From an uncultured Desulfobacteraceae bacterium (GTDB lineage Bacteria > Desulfobacterota > Desulfobacteria > Desulfobacterales > UBA11574): a stretch of DNA of 64,000 nucleotides. Each line of letters begins with the position of its first letter. Position 1 is the first letter of the stretch. The stretch spans positions 7,619 through 71,618 of the forward strand of contig CAZQAF010000009.1 in assembly GCA_964591175.1 (NCBI GenBank), written 5' to 3'. The notes under the pieces were generated by a model. The model worked only from the letters and a program-made list of their open reading frames with translations, ran no database searches and was not told the origin of the DNA. Shown one piece after another: positions 22,244 through 41,451 of the stretch. Made by a program: the position numbers and the translations under genes.

Positions 22244-23944
22244 ATGATAAACCCCGTAATTTTAAAATTCGTGTCCTCACTTCTCAATAGCGACGCATCA
22301 AATAGTGCCATGTCATCGGCATCGGGAGACGGCGGCAAGCACTTTTTATCGGATATGCAAAAAGCGCTTCGCACCTTTTCAAACAAATCCGATTTTGCAA
22401 CTCATGAATCGATCAAAGCAAATACCGACTCCTATGGAAAAGGATACAAAAATTATCTTGAATCTTTCAAGAAAGAACTTTTAGCACAGGGAAAGCCGTT
22501 GAATGAGATCTTTTTAAAAGAAAAGGATTTTCCGCTGATCAAAAAATTTCTTCTTCAATGCGGTTTTTCGAACAAAAAGATTGACGGATTTTTAAAGGAT
22601 CTTAAATCTGACAGCCCTGGCGGCCAAATCAATCTGTCCTATTTTTTCCAAAAGGCCTCAGAACTGGAATCACCGAAAGACAAGGCTTATCATGATAAGA
22701 TCATCGCTTCCAACGCCATCCCGCACATCGAGTCCATACTTAGAGATTTTCAATTTACACCAAAAGAGATGGATAATCTCATCAGTTATGCAAAGACCGA
22801 AGGCGGCGGGCTGGATCTTAAACAATTTGTAAATAAATTAAAAGAAATCAGCTCCCGTAAACCATTTGCGGATAACAACGGCGTTGATCGGGATGTGTGT
22901 CAAAAGATTATAAGCAAGATGGAAGCGATCGGTATTTCCGTGAAAAACAAAGAAAAGATCGAACAAATATCTCCGGAGGATTTTATCGCATCTCTGGAGC
23001 AAACATTAGAAAATGTGAATCAAAACGATAAGTCATCGTCAGAAATTAAAAAGACGTTGGACAATCTCGTGAAAAGGGTTACTCGATCGGATCAAAATAT
23101 TACATCGGCATCTTCAGTAAAAGTTGCCTCGAATTATAATTTTACGAATTCGCTGATTGAAGAACAAACAAACAAAAACCACAATCATCTTTTTGATAAA
23201 AAACCGAAATCTTCATCAGAAAATATCACGAATAAAAATGATGTTATATCGTCTTTTCTTAAGCAAGAAGGCGATAAAATCACCCCTCATGCGCAACTTA
23301 TTGCAAACACTTCGAATCCGAAACAGAGGGCCGATATTTTTTCGGACCTGAATAAGAAAATGGGATTAATGAATCCGGTTGAAAGGGATAGCGATCATAT
23401 ACTGATTAAAACCGGGCAAATGGATGCGCCGAGGAATACGGCAACTTTTAACCTTGCAGGCACCGTAAAATCCGCACCGTCAAATAATAATGGTTCCGGC
23501 GGATATTATCTCCAGGCTTCTTTGATCGACCAGGTCGGAAAGCAAATTTCAAGGTCTATTCTCACAGGGGATCGAATCGTGAGGCTCCAGTTAAATCCGC
23601 CTGAGCTGGGAACGGTAAAAATAAAAATGGATATGAAAGACCATTCCCTTAAAATAGGAATTATTACGGAACATCATTCTGTAAAAGAACTGTTGTTAAA
23701 TAATATCCACCAACTCAGGGAAGCGCTTTTACATCAGGGAGTGAAACTCGACAAGGTCGATGTTCAGATCGACTATAATTTCGGTCAATCATTGAACAGC
23801 TCGAAGCAAGGGACAAACAGCGGACCCGGCACAGGAAGAGGTTTCAATGAAAAACAGTTCAATACGAATTCGCTTACCCAAGAAACATCTGCCATTCAGA
23901 TGCATATGATATCAAAAAATAATTTATTGGATTTGGTGGCTTAG
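22244..23944 (+). CDS. fliK: Hook-length control protein FliK
   Basis: C-terminal VRLQLNPPELGTVKIKM...LREALLHQGVKLDKVDV; lies upstream of flgD. Confidence 0.92.
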   Translation: MINPVILKFVSSLLNSDASNSAMSSASGDGGKHFLSDMQKALRTFSNKSDFATHESIKANTDSYGKGYKNYLESFKKELLAQGKPLNEIFLKEKDFPLIKKFLLQCGFSNKKIDGFLKDLKSDSPGGQINLSYFFQKASELESPKDKAYHDKIIASNAIPHIESILRDFQFTPKEMDNLISYAKTEGGGLDLKQFVNKLKEISSRKPFADNNGVDRDVCQKIISKMEAIGISVKNKEKIEQISPEDFIASLEQTLENVNQNDKSSSEIKKTLDNLVKRVTRSDQNITSASSVKVASNYNFTNSLIEEQTNKNHNHLFDKKPKSSSENITNKNDVISSFLKQEGDKITPHAQLIANTSNPKQRADIFSDLNKKMGLMNPVERDSDHILIKTGQMDAPRNTATFNLAGTVKSAPSNNNGSGGYYLQASLIDQVGKQISRSILTGDRIVRLQLNPPELGTVKIKMDMKDHSLKIGIITEHHSVKELLLNNIHQLREALLHQGVKLDKVDVQIDYNFGQSLNSSKQGTNSGPGTGRGFNEKQFNTNSLTQETSAIQMHMISKNNLLDLVA

Positions 23945-23993: not shown

Positions 23994-24683
23994 ATGTCAA
24001 TACCATCAGTAAATACAAGTTACGGCACATCATCGACAACCAGTGACCAAACATCTTCAAATTCCGGTACGGACAAGCTGGGCATGGATCAGTTCCTTAA
24101 CATGTTTATTGCCCAGTTGAAGAATCAAGATCCGCTGAACCCCATGGACAGTGCGCAATTCACCGCCCAATTGGCGCAATATTCCAGTGTAGAGCAACTG
24201 TATGGGATGAACAGCAAATTGACGGATATTGAAAATGCGCTGAGCAGTCAGAACCAACAACGCGATGATTTGGGTTATATCGGCAAAACCGTTAAGGCGG
24301 ATGATAACACTATGACCGTTACTAACGGGACGGTTCAAACCGGCAGTTACAGCTTGGATGGCAGCGGAAATGTCACCATCGATGTTTACGACAGTCAGGG
24401 ACAGCAGGTTCGAACGCTTTATCAGGGCGCTGAAGATAAAGGCGAACATGAGTTAAATTGGGACGGAAGGGATGATGCCGGGAACATGGTCGCAGACGGA
24501 ACTTATACTTTCGAGATTACCGCACAGGATGGAATTGGTTTGACTGTCCCTTCAAACACCTACATTTCCGGGGAGGTGACGGGCATCACCTATAAAAACG
24601 GTCAGCCTTATCTCATGATCGGAGATAAACTGCTCGACAGCAGCAAAGTTATCGAAGTCACTCAAACAACGGCAAATAAATAA
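23994..24683 (+). CDS. flgD: Hook capping protein FlgD
   Basis: FLNMFIAQLKNQDPLNPMDSAQFTAQLAQYSSVEQL; WDGRDDAG. Confidence 0.96.
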   Translation: MSIPSVNTSYGTSSTTSDQTSSNSGTDKLGMDQFLNMFIAQLKNQDPLNPMDSAQFTAQLAQYSSVEQLYGMNSKLTDIENALSSQNQQRDDLGYIGKTVKADDNTMTVTNGTVQTGSYSLDGSGNVTIDVYDSQGQQVRTLYQGAEDKGEHELNWDGRDDAGNMVADGTYTFEITAQDGIGLTVPSNTYISGEVTGITYKNGQPYLMIGDKLLDSSKVIEVTQTTANK

Positions 24684-24696
24684 GGAGGGAAATAAA

Positions 24697-26184
24697 ATGT
24701 CTTTATCAAGTTCACTATTTTCAGGGATTAGCGGGCTGAGCACCCTTGGCAACGCCATGCAGATTATCGGAGACAACATCGCAAATGTCAATACGGTAGG
24801 GTTCAAAAGCAGCCGGGTGACCTTTCAGGACGTACTGAGCCAGACCGTGGCCACCACGTCGGGAAGCGCACAGGTCGGCCGCGGGAGCAGCCTGGCGGAT
24901 ATTTCCAGTACGTTTTCCCAGGGCTCTTTCGAGTCCACCGATTCCGCAACGGATCTGGCCATCGGCGGCGAGGGCTTTTTCGTTGTTAGGGACCCGAACA
25001 ATGCAAACAACGAATACTACACTCGTGCCGGTGAATTCCGCTTTGACAAGGACGGCAACTTCGTCAATCCGGCCGGATACATTGTCCGCGGCTGGGCCCT
25101 GGACCCCACCACGGGTCAGGACTACGGCTCGATGACGGACATCACCATGTCGTCATTTACATCGTCGCCATCGGAGACGCAGAAGTTGACGGCCATCACC
25201 AACCTGGATTCCGATGCCACGAGCCAGACGACGAATCTGGAAACCGCATGGGACGCCACCAACCCAACGCCGATTGCCTCTACAGCCTATGAATATCAGA
25301 CCACCGTGAAGGCCTACGATTCGTTGGGAAGCACCCACGATCTCACTGTTTACTATGACCGCACCGACACAGACGGTCAATGGGAATATATCGTCACGTG
25401 CAATCCTGATGAAGATGCCCGCGCCGGCGCCGTAGTATCAGGTACGCCGACAAAGGGTGCGGGGCTTTTGGCCCGGGGGACCATCGATTTCGTGGCTGGT
25501 TCGGGCACCATTTCGGGCATGACTATGGAGCGTTTCGATCCGAACAATCCGGACAATATCGGTACCGGCACCGATGGCTCGGCCGCGGACAACGCGGCAA
25601 CATGGGACTCGGTGGTGGACCCCGACAGTTGGCAAACGGCTGAAACTCCCGATGCAAATGGTTATCTGGCCTTTCAGCCGGAGTTCATCAATGGTTCCCC
25701 GATGTCCGTAGAACTGAACATCGGAGCCCGCAATGACGGGACGAACTGGGTTCCTGATTCCTTGTCTTCGAGCCAGTATTCCTCGGCATCCACCACCGTT
25801 TTTCAGTCCGCTGACGGCTACGGCGCCGGGGATCTGCAATCGGTTTCCGTGGATACGGACGGCGTTATCACCGGGCAGTATTCCAACGGGCAGGTCCTCC
25901 CGTTGTATCGCGTTGCCTTGGCCAAGTTTCAGAACAACGACGGCCTTTTTAAGGTAGGCGGCAACCTCTGGCGGGAGACCCGGCTCAGCGGTGATCCGAT
26001 TACGGGTACGCCGGGATCCAACGGCACGGGAAACATTTCGGCAAACTCCCTCGAGCAGTCAAACGTCGATATCGCCAACGAGTTCGTCAAAATGATTACC
26101 ACCCAGAGAGGATTCCAGGCCAATTCAAAAATCATTACCGTAACGGATCAAATGCTTGCGGACCTCATCAATATCAAACGATAA
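24697..26184 (+). CDS. flgE: Hook protein FlgE
   Basis: GDNIANVNTVGFK, DLAIGGEGFF, YTRAGEF, SLEQSNVDIANEFVKMITTQRGFQANS. Confidence 0.97.
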   Translation: MSLSSSLFSGISGLSTLGNAMQIIGDNIANVNTVGFKSSRVTFQDVLSQTVATTSGSAQVGRGSSLADISSTFSQGSFESTDSATDLAIGGEGFFVVRDPNNANNEYYTRAGEFRFDKDGNFVNPAGYIVRGWALDPTTGQDYGSMTDITMSSFTSSPSETQKLTAITNLDSDATSQTTNLETAWDATNPTPIASTAYEYQTTVKAYDSLGSTHDLTVYYDRTDTDGQWEYIVTCNPDEDARAGAVVSGTPTKGAGLLARGTIDFVAGSGTISGMTMERFDPNNPDNIGTGTDGSAADNAATWDSVVDPDSWQTAETPDANGYLAFQPEFINGSPMSVELNIGARNDGTNWVPDSLSSSQYSSASTTVFQSADGYGAGDLQSVSVDTDGVITGQYSNGQVLPLYRVALAKFQNNDGLFKVGGNLWRETRLSGDPITGTPGSNGTGNISANSLEQSNVDIANEFVKMITTQRGFQANSKIITVTDQMLADLINIKR

Positions 26185-26196
26185 TGTTTAAACCGA

Positions 26197-26417
26197 GAGG
26201 TTCAGGGTTCAAAGTTCACGGTTCCTGGTCTTAAAAGATGAGAAGGTTAGAACGTTAGAAGGTTAGGCTTAGCTTTAAGCTTCGACCCAATAAATCGGAG
26301 CGTCTGAGAAAAGCCAACCTTCTTACCTTCTGATCTTCTCACTTTCCGGTCTTTTTCCCTATATTACACCCCTGAACCTCTGAACCCAAAACCCCAGAAC
26401 TCAGAATTCCGGAACCT
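26197..26417. repeat. Nested palindrome of 7-8-mer tandem units downstream of flgE
   Basis: Outer arms: (A/G)GGTTCA units at 26198-26225 versus TGAACC units at 26373-26417. Inner arms: AAGGTTAG units at 26235-26266 versus C(C/T)AACCTT units at 26314-26345. Confidence 0.75.
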
Positions 26418-26420
26418 CTT

Positions 26421-26458
26421 ATCGAGGCAAATGTCAGGATTTTGACATTTGCCTCGAT
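26421..26458. promoter_or_regulatory. Perfect 16-bp inverted repeat containing a FleQ-box-like TGTCA-N6-TGACA site
   Basis: ATCGAGGCAAATGTCA-GGATTT-TGACATTTGCCTCGAT, about 125 bp upstream of the sigma54 promoter at 26574; could also act as a terminator hairpin. Confidence 0.6.
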
Positions 26459-26573
26459 CCTTGACGCAATTCCACTCAAAAGGGCTTCATCGACAAAATT
26501 TAACTATTCATATCTATTTGTAATATCATTATAATATTCCCTCTAGAAAAAATATTCCCCTTAAAAATCGATA

Positions 26574-26589
26574 TGGCATAAAGGTTGCT
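26574..26589 (+). promoter_or_regulatory. sigma54 promoter of the mot-fli-flh operon
   Basis: TGGCATAAAGGTTGCT (GG-N10-GC). Confidence 0.8.
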
Positions 26590-26672
26590 GTATATCAGGA
26601 AAAAAAGATTTTTCAGGATAATTATCGGCACCGCCGGACAACCGGCGGCAGTCGTAAGTTTAAGGAGAAGTT

Positions 26673-27431
26673 ATGGACATTGCAACCGTTCTGGGCATTG
26701 TCTCTGCATTCGGACTCGTATTGTCCGCCATTTTCATGGGCGGCGGACTCAATATTTTCGTCAATGTGCCCTCATTATTGATTGTCGTGGGCGGAACCGT
26801 CGGCGTAACGTTGATCGCTTATCCGTTGAAAGATTTCCTTGGCGTATTAAAAGTGGTTCAGAAGGCGCTTTTTACCCAAAATATTTCCGTTGATGAACTG
26901 ATCAAAAGATTTGCGGGTTTTGCAAGTAAAACGCGGAAAGAAGGCATCCTCGCTTTAGAGAGCGAGTTAAAGACCGTCAAGGATGAATTTTTAAAAAAAG
27001 GTGTCCAGCTATCGATCGACGGGCTGGAACCTCAAGAAATCAGGGATATCTTGGACACGGAAATTGATTATGTCAGAAACAGGCATCAGTTGGGGGCCGA
27101 GATATTCACTACCATGGGCACTTATGCGCCGGCCATGGGAATGATCGGAACATTGATTGGGTTAGTACAGATGCTGCAAAATATGAGCGATCCGAGCAGT
27201 ATCGGACCGGCGATGGCCGTAGCGCTGCTGACCACATTTTATGGTTCGATCATGGCAAACATCTGTTGTATGCCGGTTGCAGGAAAACTAAGAGCCCGAA
27301 GCAAAGAAGAAATGATGGTCAAGGAAATGACCATCCAGGGAATTATCTCTCTTTCCAATGGAGACAACCCCAGGATACTTGAACAAAAACTGCTGGCCTT
27401 TATGCCCAACAACAAGAAGAAAGAATCTTAG
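26673..27431 (+). CDS. motA: Stator A subunit (MotA/PomA/MotP type)
   Basis: PSLLIVVGGT, RKEGILALE, APAMGMIGTLIGLVQML, AVALLTTFYG, GDNPRILE. Confidence 0.95.
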   Translation: MDIATVLGIVSAFGLVLSAIFMGGGLNIFVNVPSLLIVVGGTVGVTLIAYPLKDFLGVLKVVQKALFTQNISVDELIKRFAGFASKTRKEGILALESELKTVKDEFLKKGVQLSIDGLEPQEIRDILDTEIDYVRNRHQLGAEIFTTMGTYAPAMGMIGTLIGLVQMLQNMSDPSSIGPAMAVALLTTFYGSIMANICCMPVAGKLRARSKEEMMVKEMTIQGIISLSNGDNPRILEQKLLAFMPNNKKKES

Positions 27432-27435
27432 GTAA

Positions 27436-28215
27436 ATGGGTAAAAGAAAGAAAAGCAATGGCGATGTTGAATCGGGTACGGATATTGGAATTGTGATGAC
27501 GGTGTCTCTTTTTCTTATACTGTTGACCTTTTTTATTTTGCTGAATTCCATTGCGGTTATCGACGAGCACAGAAGCCGTGTGGCAATCGGTTCGTTGATC
27601 GGTGCATTTGGAGGGCTGCCCGGCGGACTGTCACCCATGGATTCGGGCAAATCGGTGTTGCCGCCTTCAGCGCCGATGATCGATGAAGATTTGACCATTG
27701 AACAGTTGATGTCATATGTTCAAAGAGATGTTCACGGGATTCCCGGTGAGATAAAAATTGTAGCCGATGGAGATGAAAAAAAAATCATCATCAACGAAAG
27801 CGCCTTGTATAATGAAAAAGAACACAAACTCAAACCCTCCATACGCGCTTTTTTGTATAAAGTCAGTCGAATTATAAGGCAGGGCGATTTCCCGGTTGAA
27901 ATTGCGGGCTTTACGGACAATGTCGAAGATGTGAGAAATGGATATCGATCGAACTGGGAGCTGTCCACCATCATGGCGCTGAAAGTGTTAAAATATTTTG
28001 TTTCAGATTGCGGGGTTCTTCCCGGAAGACTTACGGCATATGGAAATGGAAGCAATCATCCCATCGGTTCCAATGATACAAGAAAATCCAGAGCCCGGAA
28101 CAAACGTGTTGAAATATGCCTGAAATACAATCCGCCGGCCTACATTAAACGGATTTTTGAAAAGAAACCGCACGGATTTTTTACATACAAGAAGTTTGAT
28201 TTTAAAATCTTTTAA
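27436..28215 (+). CDS. MotB-like stator B subunit lacking the conserved TM Asp
   Basis: TM MTVSLFLILLTFFILL; OmpA-like domain EIAGFTDN, SNWELS, NKRVEI. Confidence 0.85.
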   Translation: MGKRKKSNGDVESGTDIGIVMTVSLFLILLTFFILLNSIAVIDEHRSRVAIGSLIGAFGGLPGGLSPMDSGKSVLPPSAPMIDEDLTIEQLMSYVQRDVHGIPGEIKIVADGDEKKIIINESALYNEKEHKLKPSIRAFLYKVSRIIRQGDFPVEIAGFTDNVEDVRNGYRSNWELSTIMALKVLKYFVSDCGVLPGRLTAYGNGSNHPIGSNDTRKSRARNKRVEICLKYNPPAYIKRIFEKKPHGFFTYKKFDFKIF

Positions 28216-28280
28216 CCTCGATATTTTTCTATTTTGGTTATGATCAATCGGGGTTTTAAATAAAGACAGAGGATAAAAAA

Positions 28281-28994
28281 GTGAGTGAAGAGAAAAAACT
28301 CGATCCAAATGGATGGATGCTGACATTTGCCGATCTGGTGATGCTTTTGCTGACTTTTTTTGTCATGTTGCTGACGATGTCTTCAATGGATGCTAAAAAA
28401 TTGCGGAATATAATGACGCATTTCAGAGCTTCGACGGGTGTTCTCGAATTTGCAGGGCCCAGTAAGGTTTACAACTTGGGAAACTTCATCAATCAATACA
28501 ATGATACCGACAGCTTATTGGTTGTCGATCAAAAACATTTTTTAGCGAAAATAAAATTCGTGACCAATATAAAGAAAAAGTTAACCGGTATCAACAACCA
28601 AATCACCTTATCCGAAGATGAGCGAGGTGTTGCCCTGGCATTTCATGGTGACATTCTTTTTGCTCCTGGAAAAACCACTCTTCGAAAAGAGGTATATCCC
28701 GTTCTTAATGTCATTGCTGACGCTATAAAGACATGTCCCAATAATATTTTGATAATGGGACAGACAGACAATATACCGGTTAGAAGTAAGATATATCCAT
28801 CCAACTGGGAGCTTTCCGCATACCGAGGTCTTTCTGTCCTGGATTATTTTATAAATAAAAAAGGGCTTTCACCATCGAGATTTTCCGTCGGTGGTTCCGG
28901 GTCCTCGAGACCCTTATATCCGAATACCACTCCTAAAAACCGAGCCCTGAATCGAAGAGTAGAGATAATATTTAAACATATAAAGGAGATATAA
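28281..28994 (+). CDS. motB: Stator B subunit MotB (canonical)
   Basis: WMLTFADLVMLLLTFFVML; GQTDNIP, SNWELSAYR, NRRVEI. Confidence 0.95.
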   Translation: MSEEKKLDPNGWMLTFADLVMLLLTFFVMLLTMSSMDAKKLRNIMTHFRASTGVLEFAGPSKVYNLGNFINQYNDTDSLLVVDQKHFLAKIKFVTNIKKKLTGINNQITLSEDERGVALAFHGDILFAPGKTTLRKEVYPVLNVIADAIKTCPNNILIMGQTDNIPVRSKIYPSNWELSAYRGLSVLDYFINKKGLSPSRFSVGGSGSSRPLYPNTTPKNRALNRRVEIIFKHIKEI

Positions 28995-29483
28995 ATGGCT
29001 GAGGAAAAAGAAAAGGCTAAAGACGCTCCAGAAGAAAAAACATCCAAGAAGTTAAGTCTTAAATTGATCATCATCGCGAGCATTGTTTTGTTCATCGGAG
29101 CAGGCGGTTTTTTCGGATATAGTAAATTTAAAAAAAGTTCAGAAGCATCTGCCGCAACCAAGAAAAAACAAAAAGTCAGCATCATCTGTCCATTGAAATC
29201 ATTTGTCGTCAATCTTCTGGATAAAAGAGGGGTCGGCAAAAGATACTTGAAAGTTACCGTTGAAGTCGAGGTGGGGAGAGACGAGGACAAGCAGCTCATA
29301 GACAGTCATAATCCCCAGCTCAGAGATAGCATATTACTGCTGCTTTCAAGTCAAACTTTAGAAGAGATTAACACCATGGATGGTAAACTCGCATTAAAAC
29401 AAGAGCTTTTGTCAAGGATGAAGCAGATTCTCGGTAATGGTGTAGTCCGCAGAATTTATTTTACCGAGTTCGTCGTGCAATAG
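28995..29483 (+). CDS. fliL: Flagellar basal-body protein FliL
   Basis: Single TM; FVVNL, RYLKV, QLRDSILLLLSS, IYFTEFVVQ. Confidence 0.95.
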   Translation: MAEEKEKAKDAPEEKTSKKLSLKLIIIASIVLFIGAGGFFGYSKFKKSSEASAATKKKQKVSIICPLKSFVVNLLDKRGVGKRYLKVTVEVEVGRDEDKQLIDSHNPQLRDSILLLLSSQTLEEINTMDGKLALKQELLSRMKQILGNGVVRRIYFTEFVVQ

Positions 29484-37235: not shown

Positions 37236-38141
37236 ATGGATCAGGCAACAAATCTAAGGAGAATTGTAAAAAAAGAATCCGGCAGGGTACATAAACTCAG
37301 AGCCAGCGACACATCAATTCCCCGAATAACAAGTCCCATGGTATTTGCCGTTACCAGCGGTAAAGGTGGTGTGGGAAAGACGAATATCGTGGGCAATCTG
37401 GCGATCACATATCAGAGAATGAAAAAAAAGGTTCTCATTTTCGATGCGGATCTCGGGCTAGCAAACATCGATATTATTTTCGGCATTAATCCCAAATACA
37501 CCATCGAAGATGTCATAAAAGGTGAAAAAGAGCTGTCTCAGATCATCGCCAAAGGACCCGAAGGTGTGGCGATTATACCTGCAAGTTCAGGAGTACAGGA
37601 ATTATCTAATCTTACGGAAGGACACAAGATCAATCTTTTAAATGAATTTGATTTATTGAACAAACGGTATGACATATTGCTGATTGACACCGGCGCCGGT
37701 ATTTCTTCCAATGTTCTATATTTTAATTTGGCGGCTCAAGAGAGGATCGTTGTAGTGACACCTGAACCCACATCCATTACAGATGCTTATGCCTTGATAA
37801 AGGTGATGTTTAAGCAACATGGAATTAAGAATTTTATACTATTGATGAATATGGTTAAAAATGAGTCTGAAGCCGTATCGGTATATAAACACCTGAGCAG
37901 GGTGATAGAAAAGTTTATGGGGAGTATCTCCTTGGGCTACGCCGGTCATATTCCATATGACAGTCGTATTCATGAATCGGTAAGCAGAAGGGAGCCGGTT
38001 ACGTGTTGTTACCCCCAATCCGCTTCGAGTCAAAGCTTTCAACAACTGGCCGAATATCTTTTAAATCAATCGGATGGAAAGCATCATGACGGGAGCATTA
38101 AATTTTTCTTAAAAAAAATAATGGTTGGTGCAACGGGTTAA
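37236..38141 (+). CDS. flhG: MinD-like ATPase FlhG/FleN
   Basis: MDQATNLR, SGKGGVGKTN, DADLGLANID, DTGAG, PEPTSITDAYA. Confidence 0.95.
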   Translation: MDQATNLRRIVKKESGRVHKLRASDTSIPRITSPMVFAVTSGKGGVGKTNIVGNLAITYQRMKKKVLIFDADLGLANIDIIFGINPKYTIEDVIKGEKELSQIIAKGPEGVAIIPASSGVQELSNLTEGHKINLLNEFDLLNKRYDILLIDTGAGISSNVLYFNLAAQERIVVVTPEPTSITDAYALIKVMFKQHGIKNFILLMNMVKNESEAVSVYKHLSRVIEKFMGSISLGYAGHIPYDSRIHESVSRREPVTCCYPQSASSQSFQQLAEYLLNQSDGKHHDGSIKFFLKKIMVGATG

Positions 38142-38904
38142 TGAAATGAAAGCAGGGATTAAAAAATATCAAGAGGTCACCCCCGTCGCCACGGAAGATA
38201 CAGATTTTAAACGCCGGGAAGATCTTATCCTCAAATACGCGCCTCTTGTAAAGAAAATTGCCGAAAGAATGGCAATGAGACTTCCTCCTCAAATATCCAA
38301 GGAGGAACTCATCGGTCCCGGAATACTCGGATTGTTCGATGCAATTGAAAAGTTCGATTCGACAAAAGGAATTAAATTCAGGACATATGCGAATCTGAGG
38401 ATAAAAGGAGCCATTTTAGATGAATTAAGAAAAATGGATTGGATTTCAAGATCCGTTCGGAGAAATATCAATAGAATTGAAGACACGATAAGAACGCTTG
38501 AACTCAAACTCGACAGGGCGCCCAAAGATGACGAGATCGCTGATGAGATGGGGCTTGACATCGAATCCTATTACAAGATGATCAGCAGATCCTGCGGCGT
38601 CAATCTCTTGAGCCTCGATGAATTGATGCTCGACGGCTCAACACCCAAGATTTCCAAACAAGTTTCGGATGTTTCTTCTCCATTTGATGATCTAAAAATA
38701 AAGGAAATCAAAGGTGTTATATCCAAAGCGCTTTCAACACTTTCAAAAAAAGAACAACTGGTAATGTCCCTATATTATTATGAAGAGTTGACATTAAAAG
38801 AAATAGCGAATGTCTTGAGTCTGACGGAGTCGAGAATATCTCAAATCCATTCTAAAGCGATAATAAGACTGAGAGTTAAAATGAGAACTTATTATGAAGG
38901 CTGA
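38125..38904 (+). CDS. fliA: Flagellar sigma factor sigma28 FliA (ATG at 38146 is a possible start)
   Basis: RIKGAILDELRKMDW, YYYEELTLKEIANVLSLTESRISQIH. Confidence 0.97.
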   Translation: MVQRVNEMKAGIKKYQEVTPVATEDTDFKRREDLILKYAPLVKKIAERMAMRLPPQISKEELIGPGILGLFDAIEKFDSTKGIKFRTYANLRIKGAILDELRKMDWISRSVRRNINRIEDTIRTLELKLDRAPKDDEIADEMGLDIESYYKMISRSCGVNLLSLDELMLDGSTPKISKQVSDVSSPFDDLKIKEIKGVISKALSTLSKKEQLVMSLYYYEELTLKEIANVLSLTESRISQIHSKAIIRLRVKMRTYYEG

Positions 38905-38906
38905 AT

Positions 38907-39494
38907 ATGACTACGGTGCATAAGGAAAAAAATACCGGTCAACTTGCCGATGATGTTAACGAACCGAAAAATGATAAAAACAAGGTGTTTTCAAAAAAGA
39001 AAAGACAAGGCAGAACATCGTGGAAATATCGGTGGAAACGGAAACTTTTTCTTCTTTTTATTTGGGGAATTTTTATTTTTGCCGGGTTTTTATCGTATCC
39101 TTTGTTAAAAAATCTGCAAGTTAGTCCGGTGAACCCAACAAAGAGTCGGCAGGTAAGTTCGGTGATGCCCCGAGTGAAGCTTTTTCCAGTCCAAAGTGAC
39201 CGATCCGTCAATTTTGACTCTTTTATTATTCCTTTTGAAGAACATGGCAAGTTTACGTATATATCCTTAAGTATTTCTTTTGAATTGCCGAATAAAGATC
39301 TAAAGGATGAAATGTATAAAAAAAATACTCTAATCAGAGGTATTATTTATAGAATATTGAGTGAAAATATAAAGATATTGACCACTGTGTCATCGTTGGA
39401 AGAATTAAAGGAGCTTATTATCCACAGAGTTAATGGCGTGCTGGCAGCCGGTAAGGTTAGTGAAGTAATTATAACTGATTTTTCGATGGTATGA
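38907..39494 (+). CDS. Second FliL-like single-pass membrane protein
   Basis: Basic N-terminus, one TM, C-terminal IRGIIYRIL...EELKELII..VN..GKVSEVIITDF resembling FliL. Confidence 0.7.
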   Translation: MTTVHKEKNTGQLADDVNEPKNDKNKVFSKKKRQGRTSWKYRWKRKLFLLFIWGIFIFAGFLSYPLLKNLQVSPVNPTKSRQVSSVMPRVKLFPVQSDRSVNFDSFIIPFEEHGKFTYISLSISFELPNKDLKDEMYKKNTLIRGIIYRILSENIKILTTVSSLEELKELIIHRVNGVLAAGKVSEVIITDFSMV

Positions 39495-39877: not shown

Positions 39878-40372
39878 ATGAATTTATTGGCGTTAAAATA
39901 CCTGATCATTTTACAAATAGCTATTGATTTTGCAATTTTTGTCGTGTTTATTTTATTAATGATACGACTGAAATCTTTTAACAAGAATTCATCATTGAAT
40001 GAAAAGTTGGAACGATACGAATCTCTATTGACAGATGCGGCTGACATGTCCGAGAGATTCAATAAGATGTTGCAAGAAAAAAAAGATATTGTAATAAAAG
40101 TTAACGAACATCTTGACAACAGAATTAAAAGCCTGCATGCGATGTTGAACAGAACAGATGCATTGCTTTTTAATCACAGATCCGGCAATCAAGATGATTC
40201 CGGTGAGAATAGCCTCAGAAACCATAATAAAGAGATCATTAAATTGGCGCGAGAAGGATTTGATTCGGACTATATCGCCGACAGTCTTTTAATCTCCAAA
40301 GAAGAGGTGATGCTGGTATTGGATTTAAAGAAAAAGATTTCAAAGAAAGATCGTAAAGAGGATATTTCTTGA
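39878..40372 (+). CDS. Membrane-anchored coiled-coil protein with a DUF2802-like C-terminal helical domain
   Basis: N-terminal TM, coiled coil, C-terminal IIKLAREGFDSDYIADSLLISKEEVMLVL. Confidence 0.65.
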   Translation: MNLLALKYLIILQIAIDFAIFVVFILLMIRLKSFNKNSSLNEKLERYESLLTDAADMSERFNKMLQEKKDIVIKVNEHLDNRIKSLHAMLNRTDALLFNHRSGNQDDSGENSLRNHNKEIIKLAREGFDSDYIADSLLISKEEVMLVLDLKKKISKKDRKEDIS

Positions 40373-41451
40373 CGCAGATCAGCCATTCACCGATTCGAGC
40401 ATCACGGCTATCACTTCAATCCATCGACAAGGACACTTCTCGGCCACCTTTTGTCAAAGACGAAATTGTTAGAGGGCTGGTTTTAAAGTCAATTTCATCA
40501 AAAAGCGCCATGCTTATGATTAAGGGTAAGCGGGTAATAGCAAATACCCATGTACCTTTGAGTGAAGGCGGCGTCGTCACCTTAAAAGTTGAAAAAACCT
40601 ATCCAAACCCAATCCTTAAACTGATAAAAATGGAAAGTAAAGGTGTTCATACCATCAATACTTCCATGATACTCGATGGGGTAAAGAAGAATCTATGGAA
40701 AGCGATCATTGAAGATATGGATCAATTCCCCCTTTCAATTAAGGACAAAGAACTATTAAACGAGTTGGTAGTAAATCTATCGAAAAAATTATTTCCAAAC
40801 CCGACTCCGGATACGTTAATGGAATCAATAGATAAATCCGGGCTCGGGTGGGAAAGCAAAATAAGAGAATTGCTTGCCTCAAAAACACAACAACCGGTGG
40901 ATATCCAAAAGCTTTTAGCCGGTGATTTAAAAGGGTTGATATCAAAACTTATTATTTCTACAGAGGGAAAAAGTGAACATCTTAACAGATTGTTTTCCAT
41001 GATACAAAATGTTCAGCTCCTCAATCATTTCGGGTTCGAACAGGATGGAAAAATATTTATCCCTTTGCCGTTGCAATTCCCCGACGGATATTTTACCGTC
41101 GGTCAATTATTGATCCAGTCAGATCAGTATCGCGATGACCGGTCCGAGAAAAAAGAAAAAGAGGCCGCTTTCTTCAGAATAAGTTTTTTACTGGAGTTGT
41201 CCAATCTCGGACCGCTAAGAGCAGACCTTGCCGTTCAGGGTAGACAGATATCCGGCCGGTTTTTAACGGTTAAAGAAGAAACGAAATATATCCTCGAAAA
41301 AAATCTTCCGGATTTTATTGCCGCGTTCAACAGTAGAGGTTTTTCCATTTTTCACTTGGAATGCCATGTCAAAGAGCCCAAGCAGGTCAACGATACCCTT
41401 GTTAAAGAAATTATTCAAAAAGAATCATGTAGTATCAGCTTGGTTGCTTAA
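40369..41451 (+). CDS. FliK-like protein (second hook-length-control-type C domain)
   Basis: C-terminal FLLELSNLGPLRADL...NLPDFIAAFNSRGF; adjacent to flhX. Confidence 0.7.
   Translation: MTQISHSPIRASRLSLQSIDKDTSRPPFVKDEIVRGLVLKSISSKSAMLMIKGKRVIANTHVPLSEGGVVTLKVEKTYPNPILKLIKMESKGVHTINTSMILDGVKKNLWKAIIEDMDQFPLSIKDKELLNELVVNLSKKLFPNPTPDTLMESIDKSGLGWESKIRELLASKTQQPVDIQKLLAGDLKGLISKLIISTEGKSEHLNRLFSMIQNVQLLNHFGFEQDGKIFIPLPLQFPDGYFTVGQLLIQSDQYRDDRSEKKEKEAAFFRISFLLELSNLGPLRADLAVQGRQISGRFLTVKEETKYILEKNLPDFIAAFNSRGFSIFHLECHVKEPKQVNDTLVKEIIQKESCSISLVA

Follow-up and report, generated by a model that had tools for sequence, protein, structure and literature searches.

A MotB paralogue without the ion-binding aspartate is conserved between motA and motB in flagellar stator operons and may belong to an asymmetric stator

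Why would a flagellar gene cluster with a single motA carry two MotB-type genes behind it, the first of them without the ion-binding aspartate (Asp)? We examined this question in a stretch of 64,000 nucleotides (nt), here called the window, from an uncultured Desulfobacteraceae bacterium (assembly GCA_964591175.1, contig CAZQAF010000009.1, positions 7,619 to 71,618). The stator is generally viewed as the product of two genes, a MotA5-MotB2 machine whose two Asp sites are equivalent and fire alternately. Here, a third gene is fixed in the stator operon across several phyla, is constrained like motB, and has lost exactly those residues on which the stator mechanism is thought to rest. This gene, which we call motB', encodes a conserved, selected, operon-fixed and stator-associated paralogue of MotB. 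With a probability of roughly 0.4, we consider it a functional third gene of the stator operon that arose from an old motB duplication and whose product takes its place in a MotA5-MotB-MotB' complex. The genes and codons on which the question turns are as follows.

26673-27431, + strand: motA, stator A subunit, 252 amino acids (PF01618, 4e-34)
27436-28215, + strand: motB' (B1), Asp-less MotB paralogue, 259 amino acids (OmpA PF00691, 1.6e-13)
27505-27507, + strand: codon TCT of Ser24 in MotB', in the column of the ion-binding Asp, read directly
28281-28994, + strand: motB (B2), canonical stator B subunit, GTG start, 237 amino acids (MotB_plug 57 bits, OmpA 2.6e-17)
28332-28334, + strand: codon GAT of Asp18 in MotB, the ion-binding residue, read directly and invariant in 68 loci

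A sequence-only reading of the window had described two full-length MotB-type genes in tandem after one motA, with Ser in place of the Asp and loss of the upstream Trp in the first copy. All three observations held. Both open reading frames (ORFs) were confirmed, and two alignments agreed on the position of the Ser. The MAFFT alignment held 128 full-length MotB-like sequences: B1, B2 and 126 representatives taken from the best 150 of 16,551 OmpA/MotB-type matches in a HMMER search of 1.8 billion cluster representatives. In it, Ser24 of MotB' and Asp18 of MotB share one ungapped column. With a HMMER profile of 75 B1-type proteins, the Ser24 column falls on the Asp of TFSD in the solved Clostridium sporogenes MotB (6YSF/8UCS). 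BLASTP of MotB' against MotB (27% identity over nearly the full length, E = 2e-22) placed a one-residue gap at the Asp instead of a substitution, and under either alignment the MotB' helix has no acidic residue. A one-residue deletion is disfavoured because the MAFFT and HMMER alignments are ungapped and because distant members, with F.VLFTSL against W.VTFSDL, fit a substitution. No other conserved acidic residue was found in the MotB' helix (residues 17-40). The column of the MotA-contacting Trp, which in stator B subunits stands one and a half turns ahead of the Asp, holds Gly18 in the window and, among 72 orthologues, Gly in 33, Ile in 14 and other residues in the rest, whereas Trp12 is present in 67 of 67 partner MotBs. 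The possibility that Asp16 serves as a shifted conducting residue, which would have undone the earlier reading, was ruled out: it is conserved in only 27 of 73 orthologues (Asn in 20, Ser in 10 and Gly in 9) and lies just before, and thus outside, the predicted helix.

The absence of the Asp is a property of the whole family. Across 73 species-level loci, the column holds Ser in 71 and Ala in 2, while all 68 partner MotBs have Asp. Among 75 diverse representatives we counted 49 Ser, 26 Ala and no Asp, and a further profile search that yielded 99 relatives gave 50 Ser, 36 Gly, 12 Ala and a single Asp. The 128-sequence alignment, which includes the MotB types, has Ser in 56, Ala in 27, Asp in 39 and a few Gly, Pro or Asn. 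The replacement residue in MotB' is small (Ser, Ala or Gly, with one Thr) and neither bulky nor charged.

A sequence search found 520 homologues of MotB' with lengths near 258 amino acids, of which the best 120 are 62-100% identical. Almost all of these 120 are 257-261 amino acids long, and they carry the motif ...(M/L)T(V/I)SLF(L/I)ILL(T/A)FF... with Ser, the exceptions being one protein with MAVS and one that starts inside the motif. A scan of one genome per species, made with a pattern from 29 closer sequences and hence biased to Desulfobacterales-like helices, returned 78 loci, about 73 of which share the window's order flgD-flgE-motA-B1-B2-fliL-fliM-fliN-fliP. The hosts are labelled Desulfobacterales, Desulfatiglandales, Desulfatibacillum, Desulfotignum, Desulforapulum, Thermodesulfobacteriota and Bacteriovoracaceae. 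Distant MotB' proteins of about 30-35% identity occupy the same position between motA and motB in a Tectomicrobia genome, in a Thermosulfidibacter takaii-like contig (the protein is shared with T. takaii) and in three metagenome contigs, and further distant members are labelled Nitrospirota and Desulfofervidaceae. The place next to motA within a flagellar operon is common to the window, about 73 loci and distant members, and in all recovered flagellar loci MotB' is next to an Asp-bearing MotB. Profile searches for cultured, named hosts gave almost only metagenome-assembled genomes, and no genetically tractable host emerged from them other than a T. takaii entry. In the contigs of L001, L005 and L073, which are metagenome assemblies, we observed flgE, fliM, motB or the motB' N terminus split into adjacent ORFs; these splits are probably assembly indels, not pseudogenes.

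The median gaps are 3 nt between motA and motB', 12 nt between motB' and motB, and 13 nt between motB and fliL, with frequent overlaps, which fits co-translation of motA, motB' and motB in similar amounts. Pairwise ratios of nonsynonymous to synonymous substitution rates (dN/dS) were 0.12-0.28 for motB', 0.12-0.30 for motB, 0.03-0.16 for motA and 0.12-0.34 for fliL. The Asp-less copy is thus neither sporadic nor decaying, the two outcomes that would have spoken against the earlier reading: its synteny holds in every flagellar locus recovered, its dN/dS is low, and its Asp column keeps a small residue. In a neighbor-joining tree, a single split separates 116 of the 117 Asp-less proteins, joined by two with the Asp, from the rest. 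This precise split had a bootstrap of 5/100, its boundary being formed by two Asp-bearing relatives and one Ser-bearing one; the grouping was stable (mean Jaccard 0.97). That the Asp-less proteins form nearly one clade fits a single old duplication of motB followed by loss of the Asp.

We modelled the single chain with AlphaFold on 75 sequences (mean predicted local distance difference test score [pLDDT] of 84), and the parts of the protein are given below.

27436-27483, + strand: cytoplasmic N-terminal tail with a basic cluster (MGKRKK...), median of 4 Lys/Arg in 73 orthologues
27484-27555, + strand: membrane helix, residues 17-40 (...MTVSLFLILLTFFILLNSIA), an AlphaFold helix with pLDDT >90
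27544-27546, + strand: codon AAT of Asn37, a polar residue near the periplasmic end of the helix, Asn in 68 of 73 loci and 65 of 75 representatives
27565-27609, + strand: plug-like helix, residues 44-58, within D43..GSL.G.FG (AlphaFold)
27751-28125, + strand: OmpA-like domain, residues ~106-230 (PF00691, Foldseek)
27973-27975, + strand: codon ATG of Met180, in place of the Arg of LSxxRA, read directly
28132-28212, + strand: C-terminal extension, residues 233-259 (...KPHGFFTYKKFDFKIF), absent from MotB

MotB' thus has the single N-terminal helix with an LLxFF motif and the plug helix of a stator B subunit. Within this N-terminal helix, LLTFF(I/V)(L/M)L is the same as in MotB, and the polar residues Thr22, Ser24, Asn37 and Ser38 are conserved; the Asn37 column is Leu in MotB and Tyr in C. 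sporogenes MotB. In the plug segment, Ser53 and Phe58 are invariant and Asp43 is present in 72 of 73 orthologues. The linker that follows is disordered in the model. Foldseek matched the OmpA-like domain to Bacillus subtilis MotS, Vibrio PomB, Helicobacter pylori MotB and a Desulfovibrio "MotB-like" protein with E values of 1e-11 to 1e-13, and Arg224 in this region is invariant among the 73 orthologues. The C-terminal extension is modelled as a helix (235-241) and a beta hairpin (247-258), in which Phe254 and Phe256 are conserved in 72 and 71 of 73 orthologues. OmpA (PF00691) is matched with 51.3 bits (cut-off 27.2) and MotB_plug with 18.5 bits, under its 24-bit cut-off; the latter is nevertheless recorded for many distant members. 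No NCBIfam model reached its cut-off for MotB', and the best matches span the periplasmic domain only.

We measured conservation as the mean major-residue frequency per segment over the 73 orthologues. The membrane helix (B1 residues 18-42) is the top segment of MotB', with 0.78 against 0.83 in MotB. The post-helix segment 43-66 (DE.R.R.A.GSL.G.FG.LPGG) scored 0.68 in MotB' and 0.42 in MotB, the linker 0.37 in both, and the OmpA-like domain 0.56 and 0.62, respectively. The strong conservation of the helix and the plug-like segment indicates a constraint beyond that on a simple membrane anchor.

The peptidoglycan-binding domain of MotB' had been read as intact, and this stands for its fold, supported by Foldseek and PF00691, but not for its key Arg. 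In OmpA-like domains, a pair of Asp and Arg binds diaminopimelate (PMC5974059), and by our own mapping the Arg of LSxxRA would be the residue of that pair. MotB' in the window has the Asp (Asp161), and Met180 stands in place of the Arg. The column is Met in 31, Arg in 28 and Lys in 7 of the 73 loci and Arg in 58 of 75 members of the wider family, while the corresponding Arg182 of the partner MotB is Arg in 68 of 68 loci.

Relatives outside the main set vary the same theme. At locus L077 (4917-6283, a Desulfobotulus sp. metagenome-assembled genome), MotB' has Thr in the Asp column and retains the helix and the tail (LLFRDFIFRIF), while the OmpA motifs are strongly degenerate in both MotB' and MotB and almost gone in the former. 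Since helix and tail persist there without the OmpA motifs, the conserved function appears to reside in the helix, plug segment and tail and not in wall binding. A subfamily with Gly in the Asp column keeps the Trp (GWEIVYSGFVLILLCFF), and its genes likewise lie between motA and a motB with the Asp. It represents either a deep MotB' branch or an independent loss of the Asp. This subfamily is large (L087, 5001-5744; proteins P0429-P0473; GWEIVYSGFVLILLCFFIMLSSF) and often annotated "flagellar motor protein MotB."

A basal relative that retains the Asp also lies in a tandem MotB pair, far from any motA. At L084 (4478-5996; the same in L085), both members of the MotB-type pair have the Asp (TYTD and TFSD), and the pair lies outside any flagellar cluster with no adjacent motA. 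The first copy at L084 has a MotB'-type periplasmic region and C-terminal tail (ILDFKGFFFR) with degenerate OmpA motifs. In two alphaproteobacterial metagenome-assembled genomes (L075, 4959-6396, and L076), a 220-amino-acid protein lacks clear OmpA motifs and has an Asp-less helix like that of MotB' (NTVVFLSLFLILLAFFIMLNS). It is preceded by fliL, fliM and two ORFs of 157 and 220 amino acids and directly followed by a MotB-like gene with the Asp (QGWLITFADLMALLLSFFV) and then by a 1114-amino-acid ORF. Alphaproteobacterial flagellar clusters may therefore hold a similar Asp-less partner.

How, then, could a MotB without its Asp serve a stator? In solved stators, two MotB helices stand inside the MotA pentamer, their basic N termini touch the pentamer interior, and the plug helices pack between MotA loops (Deme et al.). 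Trp26 of Escherichia coli MotB contacts a ring of MotA Pro173 and Tyr217, and the two Asp32 residues are proposed to bind ions alternately, with a rotation of 36 degrees per ion (Deme et al.). MotB' has kept the basic tail, the LLTFF half of the helix and the plug and has lost the ion-contact residues, as expected of a subunit that enters the pentamer and is passive in ion transfer. We infer from this that MotB' would enter MotA5 and pair with MotB and may affect ion use or torque, and the evidence leans towards a position within the ring. MotB' would take one of the two central axle positions alongside one MotB. MotB would contribute the sole ion-binding carboxylate and the peptidoglycan anchor, and MotB' the second axle helix, a plug and the C-terminal hairpin for periplasmic contact, giving a stator with one conducting site rather than two alternating ones.

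A heterodimer of this kind is favoured because MotB' was never found without an adjacent Asp-bearing partner and because the genes are tightly coupled in the operon. That the basal Asp-bearing relative also sits in a tandem pair leans the same way, since the pair appears to travel together. The basic N-terminal cluster is gone from MotB in the window's clade (MSEEKKLDPNG) but is kept by MotB', as it is by most other MotBs; MotB' there lacks the Asp, the Trp and the peptidoglycan-binding Arg, and MotB has all three. Such complementary retention is the pattern of two paralogues sharing out one ancestral job. Additionally, in a mirror-tree analysis the partial correlation of distance matrices was highest for MotB' and MotB (0.43, against 0.10-0.26 for the other stator pairs), a weak sign of co-evolution that is suggestive only.

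Several points weigh against a MotA5-MotB-MotB' stator. The co-evolution signal is confounded by paralogy and phylogeny as well as weak, and the complementary loss of the basic tail is limited to the window's clade. In E. coli, Asp32 of MotB is reportedly essential and its mutants dominant negative (Zhou et al. 1998). The W26A change in E. coli MotB also abolishes motility (Deme et al.). With both residues needed in E. coli, a helix that lacks them might poison the stator instead of completing it. Furthermore, under the alternating-site model, continuous rotation in 36-degree steps depends on both axle helices carrying an Asp (Deme et al.).

If MotB' stayed outside the MotA ring, it could act as a membrane-anchored periplasmic scaffold or activator, with a role like that of MotY and the T-ring, FliL, or MotK and MotE, and could help to recruit MotA5-MotB2 units, hold them in place or unplug them by means of its OmpA-like domain and C-terminal hairpin. 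We regard this as somewhat unlikely. It is common for rotation to depend on accessory periplasmic proteins that bind MotB, as with MotK and MotE, which are periplasmic, carry signal peptides and interact with MotB (PMC10954123); MotF of Sinorhizobium meliloti, a FliL paralogue with a separate stator role (PMC9541039), is a further example. The family-specific hairpin, which is kept even where the OmpA motifs decay, fits a periplasmic protein-protein contact, and losses of Asp and Trp would be expected once the helix had left the ion path. However, constraint on MotB' is strongest in its membrane helix, plug-like helix and basic tail, where the packing motif of the MotB type is retained. Its N terminus is a MotB-type membrane helix and not the signal peptide and extra domain of MotY, and Pfam gave no MotY-like or other additional domain. 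Docking from outside in the manner of TolA/TonB-type helices would call for an SHLS/His motif (PMC12204202), but SHLS is absent and there is no His in residues 17-42. Quite unlikely, in our view, is a homodimeric alternative in which non-conducting MotA5-MotB'2 units would bind both rotor and cell wall and serve as a brake, lock or placeholder, competing with active MotA5-MotB2 to set the torque or hold the flagellum still. MotB' does retain all that is needed to enter and plug MotA5 with no ion-binding residue, one motA serves both B genes in the window, and in Aquifex each of two MotBs is considered a possible partner of the one MotA (PMC4525482). Yet tight operon coupling to the active subunits would mean constitutive production and wasted rotor sites, a wall-anchored brake would need the peptidoglycan-binding Arg that is missing in the window's lineage, and the loss of the basic N-terminal cluster from MotB in the window's clade argues against MotB homodimers as the intended product there.

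Far less probable is an ion path without a carboxylate, in which Ser/Thr hydroxyls and Asn37 would line a route for water or Na+ and both axle positions would be active. The conserved polar residues of the helix would suit such a path, as would the resemblance of the window's motA, whose closest NCBIfam models are PomA, MotP and MotA, to the PomA/MotP-type models, with scores below their cut-offs. However, Ala or Gly fills the Asp column in about one-third to one-half of the wider family, so that no side-chain chemistry is conserved there, and every characterized member of the MotB/ExbD/TolR group needs the Asp (PMC12204202; Deme et al.). Finally, the idea that MotB' is a recently duplicated, degenerating motB or an annotation artefact without function could appeal to the loss of Asp, Trp and, in the window, Arg, all important in MotB. 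We consider it refuted by full-length orthologues from several phyla, some of them only about 30% identical yet with unchanged synteny, by dN/dS values well under 1, by the near-single clade of Asp-less proteins and by an almost invariant helix.

Returning to the asymmetric MotA5-MotB-MotB' stator with one carboxylate, we tentatively extend it, as a possible but rather doubtful generalization, to the Desulfobacterales, Desulfatiglandales, Tectomicrobia, Nitrospirota, the Thermosulfidibacter relative and the genomes labelled Bacteriovoracaceae. If it is correct, a single site could drive the MotA ring, in steps of 72 degrees or by pairing a powered step with a passive one; such a stator might be tuned to a low ion cost in energy-limited anaerobes, and these bacteria would put the alternating-site model of 5:2 motors to a natural test. 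A MotB' that pairs with MotB would provide a natural single-site stator for testing alternating-site rotation; one that does not would represent a new class of stator regulator or scaffold built on a MotB chassis.

The stator genes sit on the + strand inside a large flagellar cluster of the 64-kb window, where tblastn found no second MotA and no further MotB homologue. Their immediate neighbours are listed here.

23994-24683, + strand: flgD
24697-26184, + strand: flgE
26185-26672: gene-free gap of 488 nt from flgE to motA
28995-29483, + strand: fliL, directly after the motB stop codon (PF03748, 7e-27)

The start of motB' is 4 nt past the motA stop codon, and downstream of fliL follow fliM, fliN, fliO, fliP, fliQ and onwards. 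No flbD, and no ORF of at least 60 amino acids, was found in the window's gap between flgE and motA; L087, the relative with a Gly-type MotB', carries flbD there. The gap contains a perfect 16-bp inverted repeat (26421-26436 and 26443-26458) with a 6-nt loop and no T-run after it. Promoter and terminator scans gave no more hits than in shuffled sequence. Further along the + strand, a second FliL-family gene (38907-39494, 195 amino acids, PF03748 4.6e-9) lies just past a sigma-28-like gene (38125-38904), so that, like the MotB-type genes, FliL paralogues occur twice in the cluster. A 360-amino-acid ORF (40369-41451, + strand) with a FliK-type Flg_hook domain (6e-10) follows a DUF6115 ORF (39878-40372), and a 566-amino-acid ORF (22244-23944, + strand) occupies the usual fliK position before flgD; the cluster may thus encode two hook-length-control-like proteins. 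Compared with the closest genome, L001, the window has synonymous divergence (dS) of 0.07-0.12 in motA, motB' and motB and of 0.75 in fliL (window 28995-29483 against L001 6560-7048), where protein identity is 82%; flgD is 85% identical and part of flgE 99% identical. These differences point to recombination, with breakpoints where motB meets fliL and close to flgD.

The sequence-only reading knew of no described flagellar system of this kind, and our searches agree with it within their thin coverage of subscription journals: no description of an Asp-less MotB paralogue was found in the searchable literature, which omits most papers from such journals, and recent surveys of stator diversity do not mention one. 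Desulfovibrio vulgaris may also have an "OmpA family protein" encoded between motA-1 and motB-1. The window's MotB' matches at 100% a protein deposited as "OmpA family protein [Desulfobacterales bacterium]," and the family goes under "OmpA family protein" or "chemotaxis protein MotB," names that leave the motA-motB'-motB locus open to misreading as a redundant or duplicated motB. The recurrence of the three-gene arrangement across several anaerobic phyla points to an undescribed third stator component and possibly to a stator with a single ion-binding site.

Among known proteins, MotB' most resembles the canonical stator B subunits MotB, PomB and MotS. It shares their layout of basic tail, LLTFF helix, plug helix, flexible linker and OmpA-like domain, its gene too directly follows motA, and its best full-length solved matches are C. 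sporogenes MotB (6YSF/8UCS) and B. subtilis 6YSL (E = 3e-58). We do not class it as a MotB because the ion-binding Asp and the MotA-contacting Trp are missing. Accessory proteins offer another comparison. MotY and the T-ring, FliL and MotC are encoded in flagellar clusters, and some have OmpA-like or other wall-binding domains; MotY is exported, and the anchor of FliL is unrelated to that of MotB. What sets MotB' apart from these proteins and from MotK/MotE is its helix, plug and basic tail of the MotB type and the lack of any other Pfam domain. The closest precedent for the gene order is Aquifex aeolicus, in which one motA and two tandem motB genes, motB1 and motB2, form one operon (Takekawa et al. 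2015, PMC4525482). The periplasmic parts of its two MotBs are 23% identical and their N-terminal and membrane regions 97% identical, and each protein functions with MotA in E. coli as a chimera (PMC4525482). Given this 97% identity, the two Aquifex copies are equivalent in these regions and presumably both keep the Asp, whereas the helices of MotB' and MotB differ and only MotB has it, so that the window does not hold a dual MotB of the Aquifex type. Two B-type genes beside one A-type gene, with the possibility of a heterodimeric axle, are also known from AglR-AglQ/AglS of Myxococcus, where the stoichiometry of AglQ and AglS is unknown (PMC9389320), and from TPH-vWA proteins that occur in pairs with TolQ-like pentamers, both vWA partners having the conserved Asp (PMC12204202). 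None of these is a flagellar stator. Overall, compared with canonical MotB, MotB' replaces the Asp by Ser, Ala or Gly, has lost the Trp in most lineages, adds Asn37 and a C-terminal hairpin, can dispense with the peptidoglycan-binding Arg, and always occurs together with a true MotB.

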